A stretch of 64,000 nt of DNA from positions 1 through 64,000 of IMG/VR virus record IMGVR_UViG_3300001765_000076; one strand, 5' to 3'. The stretch comes from a virus (taxonomy: Duplodnaviria > Caudoviricetes). The notes beneath the pieces were generated by a model that worked only from the letters and a program-made list of their open reading frames with translations, made no database searches and was not told the DNA's origin. Of the stretch, positions 1-16,325 are shown piece after piece. Position 1 is the stretch's first letter, and the number at the start of each line of letters is the position of its first letter. Position numbers and translations under genes: made by a program.

Positions 1-1
1 A

Positions 2-643
2 TTAGAAAATATTAAGTTAAATGATAATTTTTGGAAGTGGTTTGGAAATAGCAAAGTTGTTGATAAAGATGGAAACCCAATGATTTGTTATCATGGAACA
101 CCAAAAGGTGGGTTTATAGAATTTAAACCAAAAACAGGATATAAGGGCAAATCAAAACAACAAGTTGATTTAGGGTCACATTTTTCGATTGATAAAGAAT
201 ATGCCTCTGGATATGCTGGTGACAAAAAAACGTCAAAGGTTTACGAATCGTTTTTGAAAATCGAAAATCCTTTATATACTAATCAAATGTTTTATAGAGA
301 AGATAATGAAGAGTTGTTTATTAAATATTTAAATTTTATAACTAAAACATTTAAGTTAAATTTAGGTGGTGATTACTATTACAATAAAAACGGTGATAAA
401 TTAAATGAACCACAAAATATTATCCTTAACAGTTTTTTAATTGATAAAATACCATCAAATAAACTTTATAATAGTTTAATAGATTTTGGGTTTGATGGTG
501 TTTTTCACGAACCATATAACATGGAAGGTTTAACCCACTTTAAAAAACACCCATTAGCATATATAATTATAGAATCAAACCAAGTTAAGTCAATTGAAAA
601 TGATGGCACTTGGGATGTAAATGATAATAATATTTACTCATAA
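2..643 (+). CDS. ADP-ribosyltransferase-like protein (ART-PolyVal type), 5' partial
   Basis: Frame stays open to the window edge: LENIKLNDNFWKWFGNSKVVDKDGNPMICYHGT...GSHFSIDKEYASGYA...NQVKSIENDGTWD...NIY. The WFGNSKVVD-x-G-x-P-x3-YHGT start and the C-terminal N/DG-x-W/F-D-x4-IY motif are typical of phage polyvalent-protein ART domains. Confidence 0.7.
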   Translation, partial: LENIKLNDNFWKWFGNSKVVDKDGNPMICYHGTPKGGFIEFKPKTGYKGKSKQQVDLGSHFSIDKEYASGYAGDKKTSKVYESFLKIENPLYTNQMFYREDNEELFIKYLNFITKTFKLNLGGDYYYNKNGDKLNEPQNIILNSFLIDKIPSNKLYNSLIDFGFDGVFHEPYNMEGLTHFKKHPLAYIIIESNQVKSIENDGTWDVNDNNIYS

Positions 644-657
644 AATAATTAATAAAA

Positions 658-972
658 ATGGAATTAAATTGGAAAAAAATTAAATTTATAGCAAGACAAA
701 ATACTTGGTATGATGAAGGGACAGAAGCGATTTTAGACCAGCAAGGTGGTATTGAACATGATTATACTTCCGCATTCTTTCGTGGATTACATGAAGGTTT
801 TGATGATGGTGAATGTTGCTGTGTTTTTGAATTTGATTGGATTGATGAAAATGGAAATTCTATTAATTCAAATATTCCATATATGGAAAGTACTATTCAA
901 CACAAAAACTATATTATTGAGAATGCTGAAACTGGTGAAAAATATAATTGGTTAGAAAATAAAAAAATATAA
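658..972 (+). CDS. hypothetical protein
   Basis: 104-aa ORF with ATG and an A-rich leader. Confidence 0.7.
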   Translation: MELNWKKIKFIARQNTWYDEGTEAILDQQGGIEHDYTSAFFRGLHEGFDDGECCCVFEFDWIDENGNSINSNIPYMESTIQHKNYIIENAETGEKYNWLENKKI

Positions 973-1050
973 ATCCTTAAAGTGCGTTGGGAAAATTTTT
1001 TTTGTTTTTCACCACGAAACTCAAATTGAAACACTGAACCAAGGCATGGA

Positions 1051-1144
1051 GCATAACGTTTTGCAGATAGGCGATGGTTGCCTACGATAAATTTAATTAT
1101 TAACCGAGAAGTTTCTGGCAACTATTGCCTATGTGCTGTTAGGT
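1051..1144. repeat. attC-like site 1 (94 bp)
   Basis: GCATAAC(1051-1057)...GTTAGGT(1138-1144); inner arms GCAGATAGGCGATGGTTGCC / GGCAACTATTGCCTATGTGC are complementary. Confidence 0.8.
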
Positions 1145-1171
1145 GCAGTGCTTCTCACAAATTGAAACAAA

Positions 1172-1348
1172 ATGAACAAAATATTGATATGTGTTTTACT
1201 GCAAATCGTTCTTTTTATACCATTCTATTTGATTTGGAGGAATGATTGCAAAAAAATAGGTAAAGACAACTTAGCAGTCAGTTTACAAGAACGATTTTTG
1301 TACTGGCTCATATTTTGTCCAATTTGGTTGGTAGGTGTCTTGGATTAG
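1172..1348 (+). CDS. cassette A ORF, 58-aa hydrophobic (probably two-TM) peptide
   Basis: Translated by hand: MNKILICVLLQIVLFIPFYLIWRNDCKKIGKDNLAVSLQERFLYWLIFCPIWLVGVLD*; fills the space between attC1 and attC2. Confidence 0.65.
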   Translation: MNKILICVLLQIVLFIPFYLIWRNDCKKIGKDNLAVSLQERFLYWLIFCPIWLVGVLD

Positions 1349-1354
1349 CATTGC

Positions 1355-1489
1355 ACCTAACGTTTTAGCAGCTATGAAATTGAAGCGGTTTGCGGGAGAG
1401 TAAACTTTAGTACTTAGAAAATGGTAATGCGGGCTACAAGCCTGATAAATGAGATAAAGACAGCTTTGTTTCATAGGTGCATGTTAGGC
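1355..1489. repeat. attC-like site 2 (135 bp)
   Basis: ACCTAAC(1355-1361)...GTTAGGC(1483-1489); arms GCAGCTATGAAATTGAAGC / GCTTTGTTTCATAGGTGC. Confidence 0.8.
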
Positions 1490-1520
1490 GTAGTACTTTA
1501 ATTTTTAAATTCAAAATATA

Positions 1521-1691
1521 ATGACAACAATCGAAAAAAGAGTAATTGTCGAAAAGACAAAATGTGGAGTTTATTTTTATACACTCCAAATCAGAAAATG
1601 GATAATGCCGTTTTTTAGAACGAAATGGAAAACAATCACACCAGAATGTCAACCTTCGTATGAAGAAGCAATAAACTTAATCAAAGAATAA
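1521..1691 (+). CDS. cassette B ORF1, 56-aa hypothetical protein
   Basis: Translated by hand: MTTIEKRVIVEKTKCGVYFYTLQIRKWIMPFFRTKWKTITPECQPSYEEAINLIKE*. Confidence 0.6.
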   Translation: MTTIEKRVIVEKTKCGVYFYTLQIRKWIMPFFRTKWKTITPECQPSYEEAINLIKE

Positions 1692-1692
1692 T

Positions 1693-1902
1693 ATGGAAAA
1701 CTTACAACAGATAATGGCTTGCTGTGAACAATGGCCTAATTGTGAAGGACACATGGATATTTATGAGGAAATAATCGCAAAAGAAGCAATTGAAAGTTTA
1801 CTTGAAAAGGTTGAACCTATTTCAGAAGAAAAAACGTCAAAGAACGGAGAACCAACGTCCTTAATTAATGCTATTAAACGAGCAAATGGTGATATTTCTT
1901 AG
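1693..1902 (+). CDS. cassette B ORF2, 69-aa hypothetical protein
   Basis: ATG 1 nt after the ORF1 stop; its stop abuts the cassette-end repeat. Confidence 0.65.
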   Translation: MENLQQIMACCEQWPNCEGHMDIYEEIIAKEAIESLLEKVEPISEEKTSKNGEPTSLINAIKRANGDIS

Positions 1903-1908
1903 TATTAC

Positions 1909-2030
1909 GCCTAACGGCTGCGTGTATGGCACGTTGCTAATACAGAACTTAATTTGAAATACTAAAATTTAATAATATGAATAAAGATAATTTGAAACCA
2001 CGAAGCAATGTGCTATACACGTTGTTAGCA
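1909..2030. repeat. attC-like site 3 (122 bp)
   Basis: GCCTAAC(1909-1915)...GTTAGCA(2024-2030); arms CGTGTATGGCACGTTGCT / AGCAATGTGCTATACACG (16/18 complementary). Confidence 0.8.
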
Positions 2031-2189
2031 AATCGTTATTTTGGCGGTTTGAAACGATGGTTTATGCTAAGATATTATAAAGGTTGTTTAAGAGAAACAC
2101 TTGTAAGAACAATAAAAGGCGAACAAGGATTAGAGTTGGCTCGTAGATTTTTTAACTATAAAATTTACCAACTATCTAAGCCAAAATAA
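1977..2189 (+). CDS. cassette C ORF, 70-aa basic protein starting inside attC3
   Basis: ATG lies in the attC3 loop; stop is just before the cassette-end repeat TTTGCTAAC. Confidence 0.55.
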   Translation: MNKDNLKPRSNVLYTLLANRYFGGLKRWFMLRYYKGCLRETLVRTIKGEQGLELARRFFNYKIYQLSKPK

Positions 2190-2194
2190 TGTTT

Positions 2195-2220
2195 GCTAAC
2201 TATTATATATACACAACTAA
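2195..2220 (-). other. candidate attI-like primary recombination site
   Basis: GCTAAC core closing cassette C is followed by TATTATATATACACAACTA with no long hairpin (minus strand TAGTTGTGTATATATAATA-GTTAGC); 17 bp from the recombinase ATG. Confidence 0.4.
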
Positions 2221-2237
2221 TATTTAATTAATTGATT

Positions 2238-3044
2238 ATGAACATAAAAAGTAAGTCAACTCTCGAAAAGTTTGAAAAATCTTTGAGATTTAAAAACTAT
2301 TCTGATAGAACTATTGAAATGTATTTACATTATTCGGAAAAATTTTTAAATGAATTTGAAAAGGATATTTATCATATTTCACAAAAAGATGCGGTTAATT
2401 ATTTAATTAATAAAAAATATACATCAATATCTCAACAGAATCAAATAATAAATTCGATAAAGTTATTATATAAATATGTTGTTAGTTCTAAGATAGTTAT
2501 TTTAGATATAGAAAGGCCTCGAAAATAAAAAACATTACCAAGAGTTATTGATAAAGATTATCTCTTAGAAAAAATATCAAAGATTAATAATATCAAACAT
2601 AAAATTATAATTTCACTTGCATATTCAGTTGGTTTGAGAGTTTCGGAAGTAATAAACTTAAAAATAAAAGATATTGATTCTAAGCGGATGGTTATAAATA
2701 TAATTCAATCTAAAGGAAGAAAAGATAGGATTGTACCTTTAACTCAAAATATATTAGATTTACTAAGAATTTATTTTAAAGAATATAGACCAGTTGAATA
2801 TATGTTTAACGGTCAGTTTTCAAATCAATATAGTTCAACATCTTGTAATCAAATTATTAAGAAATATTTAGGTGAAAATTACCACTTTCACTTATTGCGA
2901 CATAGTTGTTTCACTAATCTAACAGACAACAACGTGGATATCAGAGTCATACAAAAGTTAGCAGGTCATAGTTCAAGTAAAACAACTGAAATATATTGCC
3001 AAGTTTCTAAAAACACACTTAGAAATTTACCACTTGCAATATAA
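2238..3044 (+). pseudogene. tyrosine recombinase/integrase (N-terminal SAM-like domain plus catalytic domain) with one in-frame TAA at 2526-2528
   Basis: ORFs 2232-2528 and 2634-3044 are in the same frame; read-through gives RPRK*KTLPRVI...SLAYSVGLRVSE...KGRKDR...HLLRHS...LAGH...TTEIY with all catalytic R-K-H-R-H-Y residues. Confidence 0.9.
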
Positions 3045-3058
3045 AAAATGTTAAATAG

Positions 3059-3090
3059 TTTGGTGGTTTAAAAGTTTTGTTTTATCTTTG
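3059..3090 (+). promoter_or_regulatory. Bacteroidetes primary-sigma-type promoter (-33 TTTG / -7 TATCTTTG)
   Basis: TTTGGTGGTTTAAAAGTTTTGTTTTATCTTTG; same 32-bp geometry as seven minus-strand copies. Confidence 0.7.
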
Positions 3091-3120
3091 TACTATCAAA
3101 TTAAAAAAAATAGATTTATC

Positions 3121-3348
3121 ATGGAAGAATTAGAAAATATATTAGATTGGTTGGTTGAATTAGATATTCAACATTATAAGACAGAGACGTTTAGTGATTA
3201 CACACCCTCTGGAAATTCACATTTTTATTTGAAACGATCACAAGAAAGATTTACATCTAAAGAAATGATTGAGGTTTTTCACAATAAAGCGAGTGATGAT
3301 TTGATGAAGAAATGGCATTATGCTGTTGCTGATACAATGCGTAAGTAA
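3121..3348 (+). CDS. hypothetical protein
   Basis: ATG 3121 downstream of the promoter. Confidence 0.65.
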   Translation: MEELENILDWLVELDIQHYKTETFSDYTPSGNSHFYLKRSQERFTSKEMIEVFHNKASDDLMKKWHYAVADTMRK

Positions 3349-3400
3349 TAAATAATTATTTTAAAAATAAATTAACAATTAATAATAATAAAAAAACAAA

Positions 3401-3817
3401 ATGAAAACAATTAAAATTTTATTGGTAGCAATGTTATTGCTAAGTTCTATTTCTAGTTTTTCAGTGTCTATCTATACTGAATCTAAGGCTGTTGCTGTAG
3501 CTAATGGTTACACGATAGCAACTGAAATGTATGGTGATTTAGTCAAATCAGACTATGTTTATAATTGGAGACAATTTTATGCAGATACAGAGTACCTCAT
3601 ATTTGCATGTTCAGATGATGCAGATGTCACTGATGTGGATATTTATATAGAGAATCCTAATGGTTCAATATTCTTACAGGATAATGACTCACACAGATCT
3701 GCGGTTGTATCTTTTGAATTGTATGATCCCATCCAATTAAAGATTGTTGTCTTTAACCATGCGACGCTAACCCCAAATTACGCATCCAGAATTCAATACT
3801 TTGTGGCATTTAAATAA
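3401..3817 (+). CDS. secreted protein with signal peptide and beta-sandwich (PPC-like) domain
   Basis: MKTIKILLVAMLLLSS signal; DVDIYIENPNG...DND motif. Confidence 0.6.
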   Translation: MKTIKILLVAMLLLSSISSFSVSIYTESKAVAVANGYTIATEMYGDLVKSDYVYNWRQFYADTEYLIFACSDDADVTDVDIYIENPNGSIFLQDNDSHRSAVVSFELYDPIQLKIVVFNHATLTPNYASRIQYFVAFK

Positions 3818-3824
3818 AATAAAT

Positions 3825-3983
3825 ATGGTAGAATTTAAATTAACCTATGATGAGTTATTTACATTACTTAAAGAAGCTTATAGAAATGGTTATTCGACTT
3901 ATGAGCCAGTTGAGGCTGGTTTAGAACCCTACGATTCAGATAGTTATAGCAGGTACGTAATTTCAAAAATCAAAACAAAATGA
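3825..3983 (+). CDS. hypothetical protein
   Basis: small ORF in an operon-like chain (ATGA overlap downstream). Confidence 0.55.
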   Translation: MVEFKLTYDELFTLLKEAYRNGYSTYEPVEAGLEPYDSDSYSRYVISKIKTK

Positions 3984-4186
3984 AATTAGATAATTTAGTT
4001 GGAAAAGATTTTCGTTATATTTCTAAATATGATGGAAAAGAAAGTAATTGGATTGGGGTAGTTGATAGAATTACTATTACAACAGTTATAAAGGACTATA
4101 AGCTAGGCGAATACGTTCCAGAAATACATATTATATCTAAAAACGGACAGAGTTATTTATTACACGAATTAATATTTTTAAAATAA
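3980..4186 (+). CDS. hypothetical protein
   Basis: ATGA overlap with the previous ORF. Confidence 0.6.
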   Translation: MKLDNLVGKDFRYISKYDGKESNWIGVVDRITITTVIKDYKLGEYVPEIHIISKNGQSYLLHELIFLK

Positions 4187-4193
4187 TACAATA

Positions 4194-4532
4194 ATGGAAA
4201 AGAAGAATGGATTACCGAATGATGTTATTTTGTTCCTTAATGAAATTGACTCTATCGTTACTGACCCATATGAAAGCGGTTATATTGGTTCGTTTAATGT
4301 TAAATCATTGGATATATTACGAAATAAATATGGTTTGTGCGAAACTGAAAACGATCCTATATCAGGATATATTTCAATTCCAGATATTAGAAACAAATTA
4401 TCACCTATCAAAAATCTATTAGCTTTACTTAAAATGGCTAATTTTAAACATTCAGATGAAAGAATTGATAGACTGATAAACGAAGCCATTGAACAATCAG
4501 GAAAAAGTGTTGAATATTTATCACAAAAATAA
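4194..4532 (+). CDS. hypothetical protein; C-terminus resembles a histidine-kinase DHp helix pair without the His
   Basis: PDIRNKLSPIKNLLALL resembles HD(I/L)RNPLxxIxxxxxLL. Confidence 0.6.
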   Translation: MEKKNGLPNDVILFLNEIDSIVTDPYESGYIGSFNVKSLDILRNKYGLCETENDPISGYISIPDIRNKLSPIKNLLALLKMANFKHSDERIDRLINEAIEQSGKSVEYLSQK

Positions 4533-4533
4533 A

Positions 4534-4956
4534 ATGAAAAATAGTTTCAAGAAAAAAAGAATTTCAGTTAGATTAAATAAATTGAAAACATGGTTTGGTG
4601 AGGATAAACCAGTTATTACAGATATGCAACGTAAATCATTATCAGTTTTTAGAAAAATGGTGGTAAGTCCAGAATCTACGTTATTAACAGACCCACTAAC
4701 TAATTGTTGTTATATTGAATTCAAACATTATTTTATTAAATTGGATTCAAAGTCTATTTTGATTAAAAAAACTACCTTTAGTAATTATTGTGAATTTGAT
4801 TATCGTATTGGTGAGAAAGCAATATCATTTTTCTTCAGGCATGTTTCTAAACGGAGGATGGCTATGGAGACGATGTATGATGGTAATACAATAGCTAATC
4901 TAGAAAAAATTAATTTTGGACTGAGCAGTTCAGTAACTAAAACAATTAAGAAATGA
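4534..4956 (+). CDS. hypothetical protein
   Basis: ORF; ATG 4534 preferred over 4489. Confidence 0.65.
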   Translation: MKNSFKKKRISVRLNKLKTWFGEDKPVITDMQRKSLSVFRKMVVSPESTLLTDPLTNCCYIEFKHYFIKLDSKSILIKKTTFSNYCEFDYRIGEKAISFFFRHVSKRRMAMETMYDGNTIANLEKINFGLSSSVTKTIKK

Positions 4957-5141
4957 AATTTGAATTAGATGAAAACCAACTTGTTAGATTAAACGAATGG
5001 CAAACAAAAATTAAAGAAATTTTTGGTGAATATGGTCTGTATGATTACGTATTTACACCATATGACATGGGAGTCGGAGTAAAGGTGGTTAGTCATCTAA
5101 CTAAGACTGAATTAGATTTAAGTAATGTTGAAAATTGGTAA
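4953..5141 (+). CDS. hypothetical protein
   Basis: ATGA overlap. Confidence 0.6.
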   Translation: MKFELDENQLVRLNEWQTKIKEIFGEYGLYDYVFTPYDMGVGVKVVSHLTKTELDLSNVENW

Positions 5142-5151
5142 AACATTGATT

Positions 5152-5760
5152 ATGAAGATTATAACTAAAAGAAGTCAAAAAGATTATTATGATTTTTTGA
5201 TTGGAGTTTATGGTGAAGATCCATTAATTGTATTGGATAGGACTAAAAATGATAAATTACCTTACTCAATTAGTAATGATGTAGTTGTTAGATTTTATAT
5301 TGGTGGTTATTTGGTTGAAGGTTATAAAATAAATGATAGTTATTATTATGGTGAAAACTTACATGAGTTTGGTGATGATAAAAGATATATCTCACCATAT
5401 AGTTATAGAAACCAAAATATAGAAGTGAAAGATTTGATTTATTTAAAAGATTCAAAATCTCGCTCGCCTTACGTACTAATTAAACCAGTAGTAGATGTTG
5501 AATTGATCAATGAGAAAGAAAATTGCAGTATATTATTGGCTTTTAATGGTGCTGGCGGAGTTAACTATTTAAAATATCCAAATTTATCATCGTTCAATAT
5601 ACAAAGTCTACTATCACCAGAGGTTGTTTACAAGATGATTTCAGATTGGATTTCAAGTCAGATAACCAAAAGCGAAAATAAAGTAGATAGTAGAAGTAAT
5701 ATAGAGAAGATCGAGTCGAAAGGCTTTGATAAGAAAACTAGTTTTAGAAAATTGCCATGA
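5152..5760 (+). CDS. hypothetical protein
   Basis: ORF of about 200 aa. Confidence 0.7.
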   Translation: MKIITKRSQKDYYDFLIGVYGEDPLIVLDRTKNDKLPYSISNDVVVRFYIGGYLVEGYKINDSYYYGENLHEFGDDKRYISPYSYRNQNIEVKDLIYLKDSKSRSPYVLIKPVVDVELINEKENCSILLAFNGAGGVNYLKYPNLSSFNIQSLLSPEVVYKMISDWISSQITKSENKVDSRSNIEKIESKGFDKKTSFRKLP

Positions 5761-6617
5761 AGAAAAATACATTATTATTATTATTATTATTATTTACAAC
5801 AACCCAAATATTTTTTGGGTGTGACGTTTCTGAAGATGAGACGCATGAAATTAAAAAATCTAAATTAGATGAGTTGTTTTTAAATGGTTTTACAGTGAGT
5901 CTCGAACAGGTTTATGTTATGGGCAATGTGAATTCAATCCCGTATCTGGATAAGCCGTTGGACTCTTGTTTTAATAACAATAACAATATTGTCACTATTA
6001 GTAATTTTACTGATTATAATAATAAGAATAATGTTTTATTTGGACTTAGACATGGAGAGTCATGGGAGTTTTCTAAGATAAAAAATTATTATGATACCAC
6101 ATACACAGAAAGAAATAGTTATACCGATGATTATTCTATTTCTACTCAGATTAGAAAGTATAATTACACTGAAATAACATCTAGTAATGATGTCACCACC
6201 AGGGAATACATCACTCAAATATATTTAGATAATCCATATACATATAGAGGACGTGATAACCACGCATTAGCTATTGACATAGTTAGCCCCATTACAAATG
6301 AGATCTCAAAAACTAATCTATATCTTACCATTCTTACCAATAATGATGGTGGTTTATTTGATGGTGGTTATATTTACCTTGACACAAATTTTATAACCAA
6401 AATTGTATATAACATAACTAAACCTTTAACTTCAGATGAGGTTAAAATTCAAATAGAAAAAGGTAATTATACAATGTTTTTATGGCATAATTTAACAACA
6501 TTTAAAATAGGTAATAACTTGTATGTACCAAGTTATAACAGTTATATTTATGTTGGTGATGCTAATGATAGTGGAGTTGTAACGTTTTTAGATATTATAG
6601 ACTTAAATTTAGAGTAA
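5757..6617 (+). CDS. putative lipoprotein
   Basis: MKKNTLLLLLLLF...IFFGC lipobox-like signal II. Confidence 0.6.
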   Translation: MKKNTLLLLLLLFTTTQIFFGCDVSEDETHEIKKSKLDELFLNGFTVSLEQVYVMGNVNSIPYLDKPLDSCFNNNNNIVTISNFTDYNNKNNVLFGLRHGESWEFSKIKNYYDTTYTERNSYTDDYSISTQIRKYNYTEITSSNDVTTREYITQIYLDNPYTYRGRDNHALAIDIVSPITNEISKTNLYLTILTNNDGGLFDGGYIYLDTNFITKIVYNITKPLTSDEVKIQIEKGNYTMFLWHNLTTFKIGNNLYVPSYNSYIYVGDANDSGVVTFLDIIDLNLE

Positions 6618-7242: not shown

Positions 7243-7986
7243 ATGAATAACAACAAACTCTACGGAGCAATTTTAGGTGATTTATGTGGTCAACCTTTTG
7301 AATTTGCAAAACATACTGGCTATAATAAACCAATTATATTACATAATGAAGATTCTGTATTTACAGATGATAGTGTAATGACTTTAGCAACGGCTTTCGC
7401 AATTATGGAAAATATTAGTTATGAAGCGGCTTATAAATATTTTGGTGAAAAATATACCAATGTTGGTTATGGTAATCATTTTGCTAAATGGTTGAAATTT
7501 CCAATGGGTTCAGTAAATAACTCATGGGGTAACGGAAATCTAATGCGCTGCTCACCAATACTTTACACTTTTTATAATGATAAAATTTTTAGAGAAGCAA
7601 ATATTGGAGCGAGTTTACTTAATTCACATAATACGAGAGAAAGTGTTCTTACATGTTTGCAATTAGATGATTTGTATCAAAATGGTAATGAGAATTTGAT
7701 AATCTCTAACATTGAAGAGCCAAAAACATTTTCTAAATTTGAGGTAGAAGCAATTCCAACCATTAAGTTTGTAACAGAAGTTTTTTGTTACACTAATTCA
7801 ACACATGAAGCTATTTTAAAAGCTGTTGAATGCGGTGGTGATGCAGATACGAATGCGTCTATAGTAGGGGAATTATCTAATCACACATATAATGATTTAG
7901 ATGATAATGATATTAGTTATGTTGAAAATAAATTAGATTCTTTTTTATTAGATGTTTTAAAATCTTTTAATGAATTTTGCAGATGA
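7243..7986 (+). CDS. ADP-ribosylglycohydrolase (DraG/ARH family)
   Basis: GAILGDLCGQPFE, FTDDSVMT, GNGNLMRCSP, GGDADTNASIVG motifs. Confidence 0.9.
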   Translation: MNNNKLYGAILGDLCGQPFEFAKHTGYNKPIILHNEDSVFTDDSVMTLATAFAIMENISYEAAYKYFGEKYTNVGYGNHFAKWLKFPMGSVNNSWGNGNLMRCSPILYTFYNDKIFREANIGASLLNSHNTRESVLTCLQLDDLYQNGNENLIISNIEEPKTFSKFEVEAIPTIKFVTEVFCYTNSTHEAILKAVECGGDADTNASIVGELSNHTYNDLDDNDISYVENKLDSFLLDVLKSFNEFCR

Positions 7987-8153
7987 AAAAAGTAGATAGA
8001 AGTCAGATGATTTTTCATGCTTGGATTAACTTTCCAAACAATTCTAATAGAAAATGTACTAGGTGTGGAGTTACACGAAAACTGACTCGTGGAAAGTGGA
8101 TTTATTGTAAAGATGGTGTTGAATATAAAGAATTTATAAATTGTGTAAAATGA
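7983..8153 (+). CDS. 56-aa Cys-rich hypothetical protein (absent from the ORF track)
   Basis: MKKVDRSQMIFHAW...KCTRCG...YC...NCVK*; ATGA overlaps at both ends. Confidence 0.55.
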   Translation: MKKVDRSQMIFHAWINFPNNSNRKCTRCGVTRKLTRGKWIYCKDGVEYKEFINCVK

Positions 8154-8683
8154 AAACAATAGAAATTTCAGTTGAAATGTTTGATTCCTTAATGGAAATA
8201 TCAAACGAAATAAAAAAACAAGATAATAGATGTACCGCTAGTCCGTATTATTATCAAATTCAAACAGATAAAGAAGTAGCCACCTACGGTGATAATGGTG
8301 ATGTTATTTGGGTATCTGATTGTGATGGTGATATTGTACTAAGAACAGATGAAGAAATAAAAAGCTGTTTATTAGAAGCTTTCATGGAGAGAGATGAGTT
8401 TAAAGATCTTGATGATGAAGATGCATTATTTGAACCAACAAATAGATATAACTCAATGGACGATTACGATATTGAAAACTATTTGGAAGATAATGGTTAT
8501 AGTAAATATAATGTAACTACCGAACATAGTTACGAAAATGTGTTCTTTACTGAAAAAGCTTGCGAGCAACATATAAAAACTAATAAACATAATTTAAATA
8601 AACCAGTTAGTTATATAAATCATGCTTATCGAAACCCAGAAATGGAAACTGTCATAAAGTTTCTACGTGATTTGAGTAACTAA
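8150..8683 (+). CDS. acidic hypothetical phage protein
   Basis: ORF of about 177 aa. Confidence 0.7.
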   Translation: MKTIEISVEMFDSLMEISNEIKKQDNRCTASPYYYQIQTDKEVATYGDNGDVIWVSDCDGDIVLRTDEEIKSCLLEAFMERDEFKDLDDEDALFEPTNRYNSMDDYDIENYLEDNGYSKYNVTTEHSYENVFFTEKACEQHIKTNKHNLNKPVSYINHAYRNPEMETVIKFLRDLSN

Positions 8684-8707
8684 CTAGATATTATGTAGTT
8701 ATACAGA

Positions 8708-8732
8708 GGGTACTCATTGAGTACCTTTTTTT
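8708..8732 (+). terminator. intrinsic terminator
   Basis: GGGTACTC-ATT-GAGTACCT followed by a T run. Confidence 0.75.
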
Positions 8733-8764
8733 AGTTTATAAAACAATTAAAAATAAATTTCAAT

Positions 8765-8773
8765 ATATTTATA
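8765..8773 (+). promoter_or_regulatory. putative late-promoter motif ATATTTATA
   Basis: 16 nt before ATG 8790; one of nine copies. Confidence 0.6.
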
Positions 8774-8789
8774 GTAAAAATTATTTTAA

Positions 8790-9575
8790 ATGCAAAAAGA
8801 AAAAGTAGTGGATTATCTATATGATATATTCAACTCAAAGAAAAACGGAGTACAAGAAGAAGGCATCAATAAAATGATTTCTAAGGCTGTTACAATGCTT
8901 TCTGAGTTATATGGGGTAGATGTATCAGAAATAGAAAAATCGTTAAAATTAGGGCAGCAAATAGAGCAAGAACACACTAAGGTTGATGTTCAATTCCAAA
9001 AAATTATAGCATTACAACATTTAGCTGAAAAATTAGATTATTATACTGGTAGTAAACCAAAAGATTGGGCTGAAAAAGAACTATCTACGGAGAAGTCTGA
9101 ACGGTTAAACGAGGTTAGAGAGATGTTTGGTAGATTATTGAGAGATGAAAAATTTATTTTTGGGAATTTGGACGAGGAGAAAGGGAGTAAATTGAACGAA
9201 AATAAACAATTTTATAAGCTATTGAGTGGTGATTTAAATACGTTGAAAATGGATGAACAGTACGCCCACGCTGAATTATCTTTCGAACAATTGGAAGATG
9301 GTGAAATGGCTATATATTTATCTGAAATTTGGAGCGCTGTTAGAGGTAACGGTTATGCAACTAAATTATTAAATAAAATAAAAAATATTTGTCTGAAGAT
9401 GGATGTTCCTTTGTGTTTGAGAGCATCCACAACTAATAACATTAAAACAAATGGTGGTGGTTTGAACCAAAATGATTTAGTTAAGTGGTATGAAAAAAAT
9501 GGTTTTAGAGTGGCTGAGAAATACAATAATTTTGAAACAGATTCGACTGCGCCATTTATGATATTTAATTATTAA
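8790..9575 (+). CDS. DUF5661-like domain fused to a GNAT acetyltransferase
   Basis: GQQIEQEHT...IIALQHLAEKLDYY; C-terminal RGNGYATKLL (GNAT motif A) and LVKWYEKNGF. Confidence 0.7.
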   Translation: MQKEKVVDYLYDIFNSKKNGVQEEGINKMISKAVTMLSELYGVDVSEIEKSLKLGQQIEQEHTKVDVQFQKIIALQHLAEKLDYYTGSKPKDWAEKELSTEKSERLNEVREMFGRLLRDEKFIFGNLDEEKGSKLNENKQFYKLLSGDLNTLKMDEQYAHAELSFEQLEDGEMAIYLSEIWSAVRGNGYATKLLNKIKNICLKMDVPLCLRASTTNNIKTNGGGLNQNDLVKWYEKNGFRVAEKYNNFETDSTAPFMIFNY

Positions 9576-9631
9576 TATAAAGTCATTAACAACAAAAATT
9601 GCACCATTATCAATATAGATGATAATAGATC

Positions 9632-9675
9632 AAAAAAAATGAGCAACTACTTGATTGATAGTTGCTCATTTTTTT
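9632..9675. terminator. bidirectional intrinsic terminator
   Basis: A8-TGAGCAACTA...TAGTTGCTCA-T7 between convergent genes. Confidence 0.85.
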
Positions 9676-9677
9676 AT

Positions 9678-10862
9678 TTAGTTATTGTTTTCTTTGATCC
9701 ATTTATTATAATACTTTATCTCCTTATCTCTCAATGTGTTAAACGTAGAAAAGAAATTAGCAAATTTGTTAGCATCTAATAATTCGTCGATACCATATTT
9801 TACAACTAATTTGTAGAGGTTTTCTAGGTTACGCCCTTCTGGATCTATTGGAGAGTCCATAATAGACTCTACCTCTTCAATGTCAGACTCTATTAATAAC
9901 GGAGTTCTAAGATTTATTATCTTTTCATTTATTTCAAAGACGTTTCCATCGTGTACGCAATTTGATGTTTGGTTTAATATATTTTCATATACTTTTAAAG
10001 GTTTCTTCTTTTCTATAGTCCTTTCCTCTGATAGAACTTTAACCCTGTCAATAACCTCTTCTATTTTAACTTCCCTTGTTTTTAGTTCTGGTATTATGTT
10101 AAATAGTGTGTCGGTTCCAAGTTGAGATATTCCTTTAATACAGTCAGATGAATCACCGCAGAGCTGCTTTAATAGTTTGATATTCATATAATTATAACCA
10201 ATCTTTTTATTAAAATTTTCACTAGATAGGAATAATTTCTTTTGAGGTGAATAGATAGCAACACCATCTGGTTCGATTAACTGTGCTAAATCCATATCGG
10301 ATGATACGATTACTAGTTTTTGATTTTCTTTTCTTTTTGTTACAAAATACCCAATAAAATCATCACCTTCAACAAGGTTAGCCGTACATTCGCGCATAAA
10401 TAACTCCTGAGCAAATTCCTTGATTATATTGAGACCTCTATAGAATTCTTCTTTTTGGACTAATTGTTCTGGCGTTTTTTCTTTCTTTGGTTTTTTATTT
10501 ATTACTTTTTTACAAAACTCATCCATTTGTTTGTAATAGTCTGAATCTCCAGCACTTTTATGATATGATTTGTCGCGATTACTTTTGTAAGGGTTATATA
10601 ATTCCCAGCGTCTAAACCCACTGTCTGGCCCATCAAAAAATAGATATACCTTAGAAAAGTCTCGTTTCTGTAATAGTATTTTTATTTGTAAAAAAAATTG
10701 AAATATACCACCATAATGTTCGCCTCTACTATTTGTTCTCTTATCACCATGGAAACATGTTTCTCCTAGACTATTTCCATCTACTAATAAAATGTATTCA
10801 ACTTTTGGTACCTCTATTTCTGGGTGTTGCTCTCTAATTTTATTTGGAATTGGTTGGCTCAT
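9678..10862 (-). CDS. 5'-3' exonuclease / T4 RNase H-like flap nuclease
   Basis: LLVDGNSL, FFDG, R-x5-YKSNR, EGDDFIG, VSSDMDLAQL, GDSSDCIKGI. Confidence 0.9.
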   Translation of the reverse strand: MSQPIPNKIREQHPEIEVPKVEYILLVDGNSLGETCFHGDKRTNSRGEHYGGIFQFFLQIKILLQKRDFSKVYLFFDGPDSGFRRWELYNPYKSNRDKSYHKSAGDSDYYKQMDEFCKKVINKKPKKEKTPEQLVQKEEFYRGLNIIKEFAQELFMRECTANLVEGDDFIGYFVTKRKENQKLVIVSSDMDLAQLIEPDGVAIYSPQKKLFLSSENFNKKIGYNYMNIKLLKQLCGDSSDCIKGISQLGTDTLFNIIPELKTREVKIEEVIDRVKVLSEERTIEKKKPLKVYENILNQTSNCVHDGNVFEINEKIINLRTPLLIESDIEEVESIMDSPIDPEGRNLENLYKLVVKYGIDELLDANKFANFFSTFNTLRDKEIKYYNKWIKENNN

Positions 10863-11296
10863 TTTTTAAATCCCTCTATTTTATATCTAAATTTATTTTT
10901 AATTTCTCTTTCTAATTCAACAACTTTCTGTTTCGTCATATGTATTTTTAAAATAATATCAAATGTTTCTCGGTTGTATTTAAGAAAACTGTTGTTTGCG
11001 CTTCTTGCTGCTCTATACATCTTACCGTCTCTCACTAGCTCAAACTCTATATTTGAAAGCGTTTCACAATGCTTATCGCCAAAACATAATGGTGATTCTT
11101 TATAAGTTAGTTTTATATTTTTAACTAGTGGATTCGTATCTTCAATCATTTTTCCGCTTTCTATATCAAAGTAATGTGGATAATTATAAACGTAACAGTC
11201 ATTATAATTTCTTTCATTTTGTTCTAAACCTTCTAATAGTGCATCACATAGCTTTTGTTCGGTACCATTATTGTGATAATTTATTTTATTTTCCAT
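10859..11296 (-). CDS. hypothetical protein
   Basis: 145-aa ORF overlapping the next start. Confidence 0.65.
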   Translation of the reverse strand: MENKINYHNNGTEQKLCDALLEGLEQNERNYNDCYVYNYPHYFDIESGKMIEDTNPLVKNIKLTYKESPLCFGDKHCETLSNIEFELVRDGKMYRAARSANNSFLKYNRETFDIILKIHMTKQKVVELEREIKNKFRYKIEGFKK

Positions 11297-11326
11297 ATTT
11301 AATTATTTATTAAATGATATTTTTTT

Positions 11327-11680
11327 TTACCACGCACTATCTGGAAATATTTTTCTAATTAGTTCTTCTGTTAAAATATTTCTACAACTTTTACTAAGGG
11401 AACCAATAAGTCTTCTATTAAACCTAGCATTTTCACTTATTTTGTATTCTACATATTTTCTATTACTCAATAATTTAGTTTCTGATAATAGTTCTTTACG
11501 TTTAAAATAATCATTATTTAGGTGATATGCTTTCTGTCCGTCTATACCATCGAATATAAATATTAATTTTCCATCTAGATAATTTCTTATTTCATCTGAT
11601 AGTTTCCAATCTTTATTATTTCTAGCTTCTTCTCTAATATAGATTAATTGAGAATCATACATATGTTCAAATATATTCAT
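11327..11680 (-). CDS. stand-alone cysteinyl-tRNA synthetase C-terminal (anticodon-binding)-like domain
   Basis: IREEARNNKDWKLSDEIRNYL...IFIFDGIDG resembles CysRS R-x-EAR-x2-KD(W/F)-x2-ADEIR-x2-L...D. Confidence 0.65.
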   Translation of the reverse strand: MNIFEHMYDSQLIYIREEARNNKDWKLSDEIRNYLDGKLIFIFDGIDGQKAYHLNNDYFKRKELLSETKLLSNRKYVEYKISENARFNRRLIGSLSKSCRNILTEELIRKIFPDSAW

Positions 11681-11824
11681 ATTTTCTTCTTACATTTTAA
11701 ACATTCGTAATTTATTTTTATTGATTTTCTAACACCAAACATGGTTATAACTGAATCCACCATTTTTATATTTTTAGGATCGCAACCACCAATACAATAG
11801 GTGGATTTTGGTTTAGGTGGTTCT

Positions 11825-12130
11825 TTAGTCTTCTTCATTTATTTTATAACTTAACTTGCTGTGTATTATTCGATTTACTTTACAATTCAAGTCGTACTTT
11901 AAATATTCACCATTTTCGTAAATGTACCTACAGTGATAAAACGTTGCACTTTTTGTAATTATTTCAGTAACTTCATTACTCGGAAATATTTCTATTTGTT
12001 TCTTCTTACCAAAAATAGTTTTAAATACAAGAGTTGCTCTAATAGTTAGGATACCATGACTATTTTTTAATATGTTTCCATAATTTAATATCTCTACTTT
12101 TTCTAATTTCATTTCAATTAAGTTTATCAA
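11825..12130 (-). CDS. hypothetical protein
   Basis: ORF track. Confidence 0.55.
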   Translation of the reverse strand: MINLIEMKLEKVEILNYGNILKNSHGILTIRATLVFKTIFGKKKQIEIFPSNEVTEIITKSATFYHCRYIYENGEYLKYDLNCKVNRIIHSKLSYKINEED

Positions 12131-12473
12131 TTATCGCCATCATTTCTTGAATCATTTTTAAAGCCTCAAGTTTTGTAAGATATATTCTATAATTTTCATC
12201 GCACAATTCAGTGATCTTTATTTTATTTCCATTTTCAGATAACCCAAATTTAAAGACACATTCTTCTTCTATGTTATTTAGAATTGTTTCTTGTTTATAT
12301 TTCAGTCTATCATGCCTCGTGTGTCTATCACCGCACTTTACACAAGTACACTGATTTTTATCTTTATAATCTTCTGGGTTATCCGAGTAAAAAACATAAG
12401 CCATTAGTGTTGTAGTACATTGATTATCACCACACTTAGGACAATACTTATGTTCTGAATTATAAGCTTTCAT
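12114..12473 (-). CDS. zinc-ribbon hypothetical protein
   Basis: CPKCG...CTCVKCG. Confidence 0.65.
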   Translation of the reverse strand: MKAYNSEHKYCPKCGDNQCTTTLMAYVFYSDNPEDYKDKNQCTCVKCGDRHTRHDRLKYKQETILNNIEEECVFKFGLSENGNKIKITELCDENYRIYLTKLEALKMIQEMMAIIDKLN

Positions 12474-12529
12474 AAACTCTTAGTATTTATCCTTGCTTTT
12501 AATTGTTAAATTTTCTTGTTCTTCTTTTT

Positions 12530-15007
12530 TCATTTCACCTCAATTTTATTATTATTCACTATTACTTTAAAAACATAACCATTTTCTAGTTCTTCACCTA
12601 AATATAAGTCAACAATATCATTTTCAATTTCATTTTGGATAACTCTATTTATTTTTCTTGCGCCACTAGCTTTATCCTCAACCACCATCTTTAATAGATA
12701 ATCAACTACCCCATCGCCAAATTCAATATCGTAATTAATTTCGTTTACTCTATGTTTTAATTTAACTAATTCTAATTCAATGATTTGTTTTAGTTCATTG
12801 TCTCCTAGGTTATTGAAATGTATTGTATCATCAATACGACCTAGAAATTCTGGGCTAAAATGGTTTTTGATTGATTTGTCTACAATGCTTTTTTTATTAT
12901 CATCAACTACGGAACCGAACCCAACGCTTTTACCTAGTGATACAGCATCTTTCGCCCCTAAATTTGATGTCATTATAACTATAACATTCCGAAACGATAC
13001 TTTTATACCCATAGCATCGGTAAGTACACCATTATCAAGTACTTGTAGGAACATTTGGTACACTTCCTTATCAGCTTTTTCGATTTCATCTAGTAATAAC
13101 ACACAATATGGTTTCTTTTTGATTGCTTCTGTTAGTAGACCACCCTGTTCGGCATTGGCATATCCATAGTTACTACCGATGAGCTTATTCACGCTAGTTT
13201 TATCAGCATACTCACTCATATCAAATCTAACCAAAGCACCTTCACTACCAAATATTTCATCGGCTAACTTCTTAGCTAACATCGTTTTTCCAGTTCCTGA
13301 AGGGCCAATCATAAGTAAGGAGGCTATTGGCTTGTTTTTATTACCTAAACCCATTCTACCTCTTTTGATAGCTTTGGCCACTGATTTAATGGCTTCGCTT
13401 TGACCAATAACACTTTCCCCTAATTTCTTTTCGATATCCATATATCTTTGTTTATCTGATTTTGATAATTTAGTAATTGGAACACCAGTCATTTCGGAAA
13501 CTATATTATAAACATCGTTCTCGTTTATTTGCTTTATGTTTTTCTTTGATTTTGATTTCAATGATTTTTCTAAATCAACTATCTTACTTTTAATATCATT
13601 ACATTTTGAATTATAATCATCACCTAGTTTATAATCATCTATTTTCATAGCTTTATCTCTCTTGACTTGATTAGTAACTAATTCCTTTTTTAAATTTGTT
13701 AACCCACTGAAATCTAATTCAATAACTTTCTTTTCTGAACCGCATTCATCCATAATATCAATTGCTGAATCTGGTAGTTGTCTTTCAGTTATATATTTGT
13801 TTGCCAATGAAACACATGCTTTTATAGCTTCAACACTATAAATTACGTTATGGTATTCCTCGTAGTATTTCTTTGAATTAAATAATATCTTTTCCGTTTC
13901 CTCTATTGATGTTGGTTCAATTACTATTTTTTGAAATCTTCTGCTTAACGTTGAATTATTTTCAATGGCTGATTTATATCCACTAAAGGATGTTGTTGCA
14001 ATTACTTGGACACTACTGTCTGATAGTGCCGTAGATAGTATTCCAGCGATATCTGCTGCTTGATTTGAATTACCACCCAGTACCGTATGAATATCATCAA
14101 TAAACAAAATAAATTCCTTATTATCTTTTATCTCATTGAAAACACTGTTAAGTCTATCCTCAAGAGCCCCTCTAAATGTAGTACCAGCTATTATACTGGT
14201 CATATTCAAAGATAAAATAACTTTACCATTTAGGAACATAGCGTCATTGTTTTCAATTTTGTTAGCTAATCCGCTGATTATCTGTGATTTACCTGTACCA
14301 GCATTACCAACTAATATCAAATTATTCTTATTCCTTCTACCAAGAACTTTAATTAATCTTTTTACCTCTACCTCTCTACCAATTAGTTCATCTATCTTAC
14401 CCTGTTGAGCCAAAGTGTTTAAATTCACACAATACGTCTCAACCATAGTTTTCTTAGACTTATTGTTTTTCAATTGACCAATAACCGAACCACCAAATGA
14501 CTCAGCTCTTTTATCTTTTGAATCTATTGACTTTAAATCTTCTACCCTTAGTTTGTTGATTTCATTGAAATAGTTATTATAATCAACTCCTATAACCTTA
14601 AATCGTTTAATTGGGTCTCTATCTCCAGCTAAAATAGCCAATAAAATATGTTCACTACCTAGTTTTGGATCAGTTAACTTATCTTTCTCAATACTTGAAT
14701 CTAATAAATATTTACTTAATTCAACATCAAAACCGATTTCTTTATTAGCTTTCTTAGTTGGTAATGGTTTAACGGTAGAACTAACCTGAGCTAGGAATTT
14801 AGCGTAAAAATCATGCAATGAAACAAGTGAACTTTCCTCTACATAACTCAATAATATCTTATATGCGTTTGATTGCTTTGATTGTAATACTGCTAATATA
14901 AAATAATCAACTGTAATATTTTTAGTTATTGGATAATCCTCTACTAATTCAGTTTGTGTCAATAACAAAACCCTCTTCAACTCACTTGTATACAACTTTT
15001 CTTCCAT
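12530..15007 (-). CDS. clpC: ClpC/ClpA-family AAA+ ATPase
   Basis: Clp N-domain (EHILLAIL), LIGREVE, two Walker A motifs (GNAGTGKS, GPSGTGKT), RRFQ, RFDMSEY, VLLLDEIEKA, ClpP-docking VGF loop. Confidence 0.92.
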   Translation of the reverse strand: MEEKLYTSELKRVLLLTQTELVEDYPITKNITVDYFILAVLQSKQSNAYKILLSYVEESSLVSLHDFYAKFLAQVSSTVKPLPTKKANKEIGFDVELSKYLLDSSIEKDKLTDPKLGSEHILLAILAGDRDPIKRFKVIGVDYNNYFNEINKLRVEDLKSIDSKDKRAESFGGSVIGQLKNNKSKKTMVETYCVNLNTLAQQGKIDELIGREVEVKRLIKVLGRRNKNNLILVGNAGTGKSQIISGLANKIENNDAMFLNGKVILSLNMTSIIAGTTFRGALEDRLNSVFNEIKDNKEFILFIDDIHTVLGGNSNQAADIAGILSTALSDSSVQVIATTSFSGYKSAIENNSTLSRRFQKIVIEPTSIEETEKILFNSKKYYEEYHNVIYSVEAIKACVSLANKYITERQLPDSAIDIMDECGSEKKVIELDFSGLTNLKKELVTNQVKRDKAMKIDDYKLGDDYNSKCNDIKSKIVDLEKSLKSKSKKNIKQINENDVYNIVSEMTGVPITKLSKSDKQRYMDIEKKLGESVIGQSEAIKSVAKAIKRGRMGLGNKNKPIASLLMIGPSGTGKTMLAKKLADEIFGSEGALVRFDMSEYADKTSVNKLIGSNYGYANAEQGGLLTEAIKKKPYCVLLLDEIEKADKEVYQMFLQVLDNGVLTDAMGIKVSFRNVIVIMTSNLGAKDAVSLGKSVGFGSVVDDNKKSIVDKSIKNHFSPEFLGRIDDTIHFNNLGDNELKQIIELELVKLKHRVNEINYDIEFGDGVVDYLLKMVVEDKASGARKINRVIQNEIENDIVDLYLGEELENGYVFKVIVNNNKIEVK

Positions 15008-15043
15008 TTAATTTAATTCAATGTTTATAATCTAATTTCACCT

Positions 15044-15075
15044 CAAATGTACGAAAAATAATTGAGAAAACCAAA
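15044..15075 (-). promoter_or_regulatory. Bacteroidetes sigma-type promoter for clpC
   Basis: minus strand TTTGGTTTTCTCAATTATTTTTCGTACATTTG. Confidence 0.8.
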
Positions 15076-15184
15076 TAACTTGTGAATAAAAAATCCAGAA
15101 ACATTAAAAACATCTCTGGATTTTCTTGGTTTCAAACTATTAATCGACAACTACCACCAAAAACGGTAATGCTGATTTCACGCT

Positions 15185-15586
15185 TTAAACAAATAAAACG
15201 GACTCATCATAAATTAATTGACACCCATCACATAAAATAGCATTACCCAGTTTAAAAATACCCTTACTAGTAATAAGACTTACATTACCTAACTCAGTTA
15301 CTGGTAGTAAGTCTGTAAATGTAATATCATCATATAAAATTGGTAACCATAGGTAATCACCACTTACGTAGTCATCATCTCCATCACCAGTAAATCCTGG
15401 GTCAGCTTCATCTTCGTTACTAATTTCAGCAATTTCTGGTAGGGTTTGGTGCGTTAAATAAATTGGGTTGTCATCATCTTCTCTGATAATGGTTGATTGA
15501 TAAATTGTGTGAGATGTTGATAGTAAATTTAATTTACTCAATTTTTCTAATCTCTCTTCTGTAAATACTTTTTCTAATGTTATCAT
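15185..15586 (-). CDS. acidic hypothetical protein
   Basis: 133-aa ORF. Confidence 0.65.
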   Translation of the reverse strand: MITLEKVFTEERLEKLSKLNLLSTSHTIYQSTIIREDDDNPIYLTHQTLPEIAEISNEDEADPGFTGDGDDDYVSGDYLWLPILYDDITFTDLLPVTELGNVSLITSKGIFKLGNAILCDGCQLIYDESVLFV

Positions 15587-15627
15587 GTTTTTCTTGTTTT
15601 TTTATTTTTAATTATTTTGATTTTATT

Positions 15628-16032
15628 TTATGATAATAATTTTGCTGAACTAAATTTTAAAGATTTATCTTCTTTGGATATTAAAACTGAATTTAACCCA
15701 AAGATATTATCTACGGTGATGAAATAGGCCTTGTCTAGTTCTTCTGATATAATAGTGGGATTTAAAACTTCAATATCTTTCCAATGAGACTCCCCATTTG
15801 GTTCGTAACCCTTTGTCTCCGATGTTACCTGAAATTCCTCGATTTCTAATTCTAATGTTGGATTGTCTAAATGTTGAATAATTCTACAAGCCTTGTCTTT
15901 TACATCTACATTATTTAAAATAATCGATGTTTTGATTGTACTGTAGTGACTGTTACACGCTTCTAGTAAATCCATGATTGCCTTGATAGGCCTTTCTGAG
16001 CCGATGGCTTCCTTTAATTTCTTTTCTGTCAT
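15628..16032 (-). CDS. hypothetical protein
   Basis: ATG 16032 after an A-rich leader. Confidence 0.6.
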   Translation of the reverse strand: MTEKKLKEAIGSERPIKAIMDLLEACNSHYSTIKTSIILNNVDVKDKACRIIQHLDNPTLELEIEEFQVTSETKGYEPNGESHWKDIEVLNPTIISEELDKAYFITVDNIFGLNSVLISKEDKSLKFSSAKLLS

Positions 16033-16325
16033 TTTTTTTTTATTTTTATTTAATTGTTGTTTCATTTTTGTAATCTCCACCAGTAGTACGTCTAATGATT
16101 GTTTCTAATATGTTTTTATCGTAGTATGTGGTTCCAGCAAAATAATCATCTTTCTCTGTCCAATCACTCCAACTAAAAAATTTTTTAGGAATTTTAAAAT
16201 CCCATAGAACTGTTAGTAATTCTAGTGCTATGAACGGGATTACTTCTACTAAAGTAAATGTTGAAACTAAGATAAACCAAAATGGGTAGAGTGCATATTT
16301 CCTATATTTTCTTTCTAATTTATCT

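Follow-up and report, generated by a model that had tools for sequence, protein, structure and literature searches.

A tyrosine recombinase gene interrupted by one stop codon beside a probable integron-like cassette array in a large phage

We analysed the first 64 kb (64,000 nucleotides; hereafter the window) of a 78-kb linear virus record from IMG/VR. The window has a G+C content of about 30% and carries phage structural and replication genes. CheckV puts the completeness of the record at 22%, which makes it one piece of a far larger phage genome. A megablast search of positions 1-6000 against GenBank phages gave no match, and no known RNA family was found in the window with Rfam. Close to the left end lies a tyrosine recombinase gene that is interrupted once, preceded by a putative docking site and by attC-like hairpins and cassettes:

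1..1057, + strand: incomplete additional cassette, truncated where the contig ends; the final 100 nt, ending in GCATGGAGCATAAC, are found again at the ends of cassettes in the arrays of other phages
1051..1144, + strand: attC-like hairpin 1 (GCATAAC ... GTTAGGT), from the hairpin scan; single-stranded DNA fold z-score -3.63
1058..2200, + strand: three cassettes (1058-1361, 1362-1915 and 1916-2200), with cuts placed after AAC
1355..1489, + strand: attC-like hairpin 2 (ACCTAAC ... GTTAGGC), from the hairpin scan; fold z-score -1.59
1909..2030, + strand: attC-like hairpin 3 (GCCTAAC ... GTTAGCA), from the hairpin scan; fold z-score -2.15
2195..2237, + strand: attI-like docking site, made of a cassette-derived GCTAAC (2195-2200) and then the conserved platform half TATTATATATA...
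2238..3044, + strand: tyrosine recombinase gene of 268 codons with one nonsense codon, from Pfam and alignment
2238..2525, + strand: open N-terminal fragment of 96 residues, a SAM-like core-binding domain (Pfam; model helices H3-82)
2526..2528, + strand: in-frame TAA at codon 97, which is Glu (GAA/GAG) in intact homologues (alignment); T on contigs of the source run (X1) and of another sample (X3)
2529..3041, + strand: part coding for the catalytic domain, with all catalytic residues intact and no usable in-frame ATG before R134

Translation of 2238-3044 in frame gives 268 codons whose sole internal stop, codon 97, stands in the context RPRK*KTLP. The start codon is the ATG at 2238, and its context, TTGATTATG, is kept in relatives. 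Two Pfam domains score above their gathering thresholds: the SAM-like N-terminal domain PF13495 at residues 9-85 (45.5 bits, cut-off 27) and the catalytic domain PF00589 at residues 115-258 (119.5 bits, cut-off 27.1). The catalytic residues R134, K159, H218-x-x-R221, H244 and Y253 are intact and, like E137, do not vary when the protein is aligned with IntI1, a Shewanella-phage IntI, and the XerC and XerD of Bacteroidota. With both domains and the full R-K-HxxR-H-Y set, the protein belongs to the tyrosine recombinase superfamily. A preliminary description of this DNA had reported a read-through protein of 268 codons with these residues in place and a single TAA, and translation and alignment confirm it. 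The core-binding and catalytic domains fill all 268 residues, and an arm-binding domain of the lambda Int type is absent. An AlphaFold model (mean pLDDT 84.6) has the usual two-domain fold, with XerA and VchIntIA as its best neighbours in the PDB. No other gene of the record carries PF00589.

Of the 13 intact homologues in the alignment, 12 have Glu at codon 97 and one has Gln, and relatives encode this Glu97 as GAA or GAG. The simplest change is therefore GAA to TAA by a single G-to-T substitution, which supports the origin suggested earlier. Since no in-frame ATG lies between the stop and R134, only the 96-residue core-binding domain can be made; the sole listed start downstream of the stop is a TTG at 2634, one codon before R134. 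We considered and rejected two ways around the stop. Recoding or suppression of TAA is contradicted by its being the usual stop codon, terminating 33 of the 46 long open frames in the window, and by the lack of tRNA genes, suppressor tRNAs included, in the window and in the rest of the record. A restart yielding a free-standing catalytic domain was dismissed on account of the missing ATG.

We placed Logan contigs from four runs of one microbial-mat study on positions 1000-3400 and called alleles at the contig level. The allele at 2526 was read from X1 and X3, a further run (X2) having no contig over this position. The main X1 contig (depth 15.5) has T at 2526 and no differences to the window, and so does a 236-nt contig of X3 covering 2431-2666; the stop is thus no product of misassembly. 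G at this position occurs on two X1 contigs only, both less than 99% alike to the window and one of them differing at 42 of 312 positions; all three contigs that are at least 99% alike match the window. A search for GAA at 2526, as the preliminary description had proposed, thus found TAA on the contigs of the exact lineage and G only on diverged ones, and there may be minor GAA reads within that lineage. Apart from the stop we saw no decay: at alignment columns where the other 13 sequences agree, the window protein (P0001) differs at 0, compared with 0-10 such columns in the homologues, and the lesion is therefore recent. With TAA facing Glu or Gln in 13 homologues, recurring on contigs of two samples and accompanied by no recoding signal, 2238-3044 is, judged from its sequence, a recent pseudogene in this phage lineage, and the stop probably abolishes recombinase activity.

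The same protein lacks a hallmark of integron integrases. The spacing between K159 and H218 is 59 residues, as compared with 106 in IntI1 (K171-H277; sequence from an E. coli plasmid) and 105 in the Shewanella-phage IntI, a genuine IntI that scores 394 bits on TIGR02249. The preliminary description had set about 59 residues against about 100 in IntI1; the 59 holds, and its IntI1 reference residue, K174, has to be corrected, as the invariant lysine is K171 and K174 is the second lysine of KGSKDR. In the alignment, two stretches of 27 and 13 residues in the IntI sequences, which include ALPDALERKYP, are missing from the window protein and its relatives. VchIntIA (PDB 2a3v) and a homologue of the window protein (P0002) align in two stretches in a pairwise HMMER comparison, with 38 P0002 residues facing 86 of the VchIntIA chain. 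The family profile likewise matches the archaeal XerA (4a8e) from end to end and VchIntIA in two pieces only. Pairwise comparison, alignment blocks and spacing thus all bear out the earlier claim that the IntI-specific insertion, some 40-48 residues between the beta-hairpin lysine and HxxR that hold the I2 helix region with its ALERKYP-type block, is absent from the window protein.

This recombinase has numerous relatives. More than 5000 database proteins match it at E <= 1e-10; the best 120 of these are 59-88% identical and nearly all 263-271 residues long, and the closest intact ones, P0002 and P0003, reach 87-88% identity. At least 590 matching stretches were found in a collection of species-representative genomes. 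The protein stays below every curated cut-off, those for NCBIfam XerA (NF040815, the best-scoring profile, 170.4 of 220 bits), XerC (TIGR02224, 132 of 335), XerD (TIGR02225, 135 of 330) and the two IntI profiles (TIGR02249, 133.3 of 265 in two stretches; NF011946, 87.1 of 435). The best match by sequence in the PDB is XerA (4a8e, 7.5e-48).

We built a maximum likelihood tree of 41 sequences, rooted at the midpoint; it contains two IntI only and neither an archaeal XerA nor an outgroup. One clade (support 95/94) unites the window protein with its relatives from phages, Freya and Ingeline among them, and from bacteria. This clade lies outside the IntI clade (100/99), its order relative to IntI being left open by the tree, and a 100/99 branch splits the family plus IntI from XerC and XerD of Bacteroidota. 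In this tree with its two IntI, the window protein thus falls within neither the IntI clade nor the XerC/XerD clade, and grouping within true IntI, raised beforehand as a point to check, does not occur. Five Bacteroidota genomes that carry a family member also have a bona fide XerD and an XerC-like gene of their own, which argues that the family is not a housekeeping Xer. Together these comparisons indicate a large family that is neither XerC, XerD nor IntI, and that may represent an insertion-less sister, or an ancestral-like lineage, relative to IntI. The preliminary description had spoken of a separate solution to cassette recombination, should the enzyme act on the hairpins; this is best taken to mean a different mode of site recognition and not an unrelated enzyme, given the branch that the family shares with IntI in this small tree.

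The three hairpins were found by a purpose-written heuristic scan for YAAC...GTTR with an inner stem; a generic repeat finder run on the window did not pick them out. The scan gave no other strong site in the window, and all three lie on the + strand just 5' of the recombinase gene. Folded as single-stranded DNA, each is predicted to have a 4-nt one-sided bulge after AACG, and the fold z-scores are modest for two of the three. If cuts are placed after AAC, each of the three cassettes consists of a hairpin, then at least one ORF, and then an xxTAAC end. Only cuts of this kind leave intact the ORF at 1977-2189, whose start falls within the hairpin 3 loop. Between 1172 and 2189 the ORFs read in the direction of the docking site and are co-oriented with the recombinase gene beyond it; the orientation of the sites is based on the docking site and on the gain and loss joints given below.

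Borders of homology with other phages identify the cassette unit. Window 958-1064 matches sequences in the arrays of three other phages (L020 6267-6372, 90%; L012 5626-5710, 86%; L018 324-419, 81%), and the homology ends just after AAC and does not continue through the hairpin. The hairpin is thus to be grouped with the gene that follows it, and positions 1-1057 are part of a further cassette, giving at least four cassettes in this phage. The contig starts inside the array: its first ORF is open at the 5' end, and L020 has a match to window 13-100 at 4125-4212. More of the array therefore lies beyond the window, and variation in it probably caused the break in the assembly.

Some of these sequences recur elsewhere in the metagenome. 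A 36-nt stretch in the loop of hairpin 3 (1962-1997) matches, with 5 differences, a contig of much higher depth (72x in X1, 63x in X2) whose flanks on either side are unrelated, which points to a short repeated element in the metagenome. In X3, window 1324-1485 (hairpin 2) reaches a summed contig depth of 19-29x against 4-6x for the sequence beside it, and loose ends occur at 1366 and 1487; this hairpin module is therefore common to several arrays in the community.

Between the array and the gene lies the docking site. Its platform half in the window, TATTATATATA..., starts 37 nt before the ATG, and the 60 nt before the ATG show no fold (z-score -0.33). We compared the window with 28 related viral loci whose recombinases are 44-67% identical to the window protein. 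The motif AACTAnnATATAT stands about 39 nt before the ATG in 19 of the 28 and in the window. The shared form of the motif is AAC-TAnnATATAT, the site being AAC followed directly by TATTATATAT, and the bases to the left of AAC vary with the neighbouring cassette. Homology between related loci begins exactly at this site, as in L017 and L020 (both from 7961, with the ATG at 8001) and in window 2194-2237 compared with L011.

Hairpins are distributed around these 28 genes in a strictly one-sided manner. We found 37 attC-like hairpins upstream on the strand of the gene, in 143 kb, and none upstream on the other strand; downstream, in 192 kb, the two strands had 1 and 0. Upstream sequence of 1.5 kb or more was available for 21 loci. 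Of these, 13 have an array, with up to eight sites, and the heuristic scan found no hairpin in the other eight, which may be empty platforms or users of another site type. That close homologues should lie next to such arrays, a check set out in the preliminary description, is hence regularly the case where upstream sequence suffices. In its layout the locus corresponds to an integron: the recombinase gene adjoins a docking site, from which a series of cassettes bounded by hairpins extends.

Several bacterial members of the family deserve separate mention. Those of L057, L062, L075, L080, L086 and L111 form a longer branch of the clade, with 347-377 residues and an N-terminal extension of about 90-100 residues. 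Here the recombinase lies at about 7700-8840, and the hairpin arrays at about 9200-16200 on the - strand, 3' of the gene and on the opposite strand; all 23 sites were in that position and none in any other. This is a second orientation of gene to array, comparable to that of 'inverted' integrons. In L051, L053 and L054 (Croceitalea and Flagellimonas) identical or near-identical members of 272 residues, with hairpins upstream, occur across species and genera, which suggests that the platform itself is mobile among Flavobacteriaceae. In L118 (Chryseobacterium sp. Leaf394, 7980-8771) the frame closes after 56 codons while tblastn aligns residues 10-257; this may be another interrupted copy, beside an array of three sites.

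Blocks are seen to be gained or lost at AAC. A 187-nt contig of X1, from a relative about 91% alike, joins 1053/1057 to 2197/2201, with TAAC ambiguous. This joint removes 1058-2200 exactly, that is, the whole three-cassette block, and in the resulting array-less form GCATAAC is followed at once by TATTATATAT and the start of the recombinase. Cultured phages provide a second case: Freya_1 and Freya_10, which infect Polaribacter, carry an intact homologue (37% identity to the window protein) in flanks that are 99.7-100% identical, and are set apart by a 4.9-kb block whose insertion point lies exactly behind ...ACAAC and 46 nt upstream of the ATG. The last letters of the block are ...GCTAAC, after which the conserved right half of the docking site follows. 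Three lines, namely the X1 joint, the homology borders at 958-1064 and the Freya block, thus agree on an exchange point after AAC. Two other X1 joints, 1700 to 2400 and 2756 to 2973, come from diverged contigs with short sides.

We propose, with a probability of roughly 0.7, that the gene is the freshly inactivated platform recombinase of an integron-like cassette system present in large phages of the Flavobacteriia type and in Bacteroidota. Intact members of the family would be two-domain tyrosine recombinases of the Xer/IntI type, about 268 residues long and without the IntI insertion, encoded about 39 nt downstream of a fixed docking site in which xxTAAC adjoins TATTATATAT. Cassettes would enter and leave by exchange right after the AAC of the docking site and of the attC-like hairpins, each cassette carrying a hairpin, one or more genes facing the recombinase, and an xxTAAC end. 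That the family catalyses this exchange is probable from comparative sequence data, and the attC-like hairpins would, to go by their predicted folds, react as folded single strands. In the phage studied here a G-to-T change would have turned Glu97 (GAA) into TAA, leaving the 96-residue core-binding domain as the only product. A phage without a working enzyme would be unable to move its own cassettes, and its array would be static unless a related enzyme acted in trans. A frozen array is plausible in this phage; the same three-cassette array is present in three samples, which fits such freezing and gives no time scale. A co-infecting relative or a homologue of the host could supply the enzyme in trans, and such a supply, or low-level readthrough of TAA, would keep the array mobile.

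Three other explanations were weighed. The gene may still be functional in this phage, with the TAA an artefact of assembly or sequencing, a minority allele or a codon that is read through. Its rest is indeed flawless, and G occurs at 2526 in the same sample on two contigs with a summed depth of 12.2 out of 27.7. We consider this unlikely, however, in view of the divergence of both G contigs, the agreement with the window of all three contigs that are at least 99% alike, the T on a 100% identical contig from the independent sample X3, and the role of TAA as main stop codon in a record without a suppressor tRNA. An ordinary phage lysogeny integrase, with the upstream site as its attP and the small variable genes as morons beside it, would agree with the usual adjoining of integrase genes and attP, and also with Bartlau et al. 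2021 (PMC8776804), where the homologues of Freya, Ingeline and Leef are annotated simply as integrases and taken as a sign of a temperate phage. Against this, the protein has core-binding and catalytic domains and no arm-binding domain, the variable units are bounded by hairpins, unrelated phages have or lack such units at the same AAC, homologues with arrays are found in Bacteroidota chromosomes as well, and the record covers only part of a far larger phage genome (22% by CheckV for 78 kb); we judge a lysogeny integrase to be very unlikely.

Still less credence is given to a single-recombinase Xer of the XerA, XerH or XerS kind that resolves phage dimers at a dif-like site, to which the hairpins would be unrelated, even though XerA is both the best curated profile (170 bits) and the best PDB match (4a8e, 7.5e-48). 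Single Xer systems keep dif beside the gene. Here, unlike in a two-arm dif, conservation is limited to the right half of the site, the left half changing with the adjoining cassette; the link with hairpin arrays is strict as to strand and side, and the family is separated from XerC and XerD in the tree. We therefore retain the reading of an inactivated cassette recombinase. Going further, we lean, though by no means strongly, towards seeing in this system a second, undescribed class of integrons, common in Bacteroidota and their large phages, one that would capture hairpin-bounded cassettes while lacking the I2 insertion, read a one-sided bulge beside AAC and carry its genes inverted.

The extra domain serves both to define integron integrases and to search for them; IntegronFinder, for instance, requires it. 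According to Escudero et al. 2016 (PMC4792948) and Smyshlyaev et al. 2021 (PMC8138268), this domain is considered necessary for recombination of folded attC sites. Our literature search, which most subscription journals lay outside, returned no paper that pairs insertion-less enzymes with arrays. The comparative evidence suggests that a large family of recombinases without the domain heads cassette arrays in phages and Bacteroidota. If so, cassette capture would be far more widespread than surveys show and open to viruses, and a plain Xer-like scaffold would suffice for it. The TAA copy would be a natural loss-of-function allele, a parallel to IntI2, and could help to tell whether loss of the enzyme brings changes in the array to a halt. 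Should the second integron class be real, this knock-out beside intact relatives in the same microbial mat would permit a direct comparison of turnover.

The system combines features of several known ones. With XerA, XerC and XerD, its closest relatives by profile and solved structure, the window protein shares a similar length, the domain order and the lack of an insertion. In contrast to them it scores below every curated cut-off and belongs to a clade separate from XerC and XerD in the tree; the hosts keep their own XerC and XerD, and the architecture of the site does not resemble dif. With IntI1 and VchIntIA it shares the two-domain tyrosine-recombinase fold and the catalytic residues, and the family stands on the IntI side of the split from XerC/XerD. 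Unlike IntI, the protein has neither the insertion nor the I2 helix, scores below the IntI profile cut-offs and lies outside the IntI clade.

The organization of the locus is also integron-like, with a gene beside a fixed docking site that heads cassettes with imperfect hairpins and YAAC/GTTR cores. As in classical integrons, the recombinase is transcribed away from the array when viewed from the docking site. There, however, cassette genes lead away from attI, are expressed from a promoter of the platform and carry attC at their 3' end, whereas here they face the recombinase and the hairpin precedes its gene, forming the 5' side of the cassette as judged by homology and joints. The system further differs from IntI integrons in the 3-4 nt one-sided bulge of its hairpins beside the exchanged AAC, and in being phage-borne and present in Bacteroidota; a survey with IntegronFinder 2 found almost no complete integrons in Bacteroidetes (bioRxiv 10.1101/2022.02.28.482270).

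IntI-related enzymes without the insertion are already on record as sequences. Smyshlyaev et al. 2021 (PMC8138268) describe an 'integron-like' subgroup of simple tyrosine recombinases in which the insertion is not fully conserved, and the text consulted draws no link between the insertion-less members and cassette arrays or docking sites. CALINs, clusters of attC sites without an integrase, have been reported in phages, including a Polaribacter phage, and some phage attC sites are recombined by IntI1 (Qi et al. 2023, PMC9892861). Unlike these phage CALINs, the arrays described here are headed by a dedicated family of recombinases that is missed by IntI-specific criteria.

The closest parallel to the lesion itself is IntI2, likewise a platform recombinase silenced by one internal stop codon. 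A copy of intI2 on the E. coli plasmid pS84-3 (L126, 301-1248), unannotated in the plasmid table, has its internal stop in the context ...IPAIK*LIEQ.... The arrays of class 2 integrons vary unusually little, and other integrases can move them in trans. As a true IntI, IntI2 has the insertion, and its stop, at codon 179 in the catalytic domain, is fixed in most copies, whereas the stop described here lies in the linker that follows the core-binding domain and is confined to a single phage lineage.
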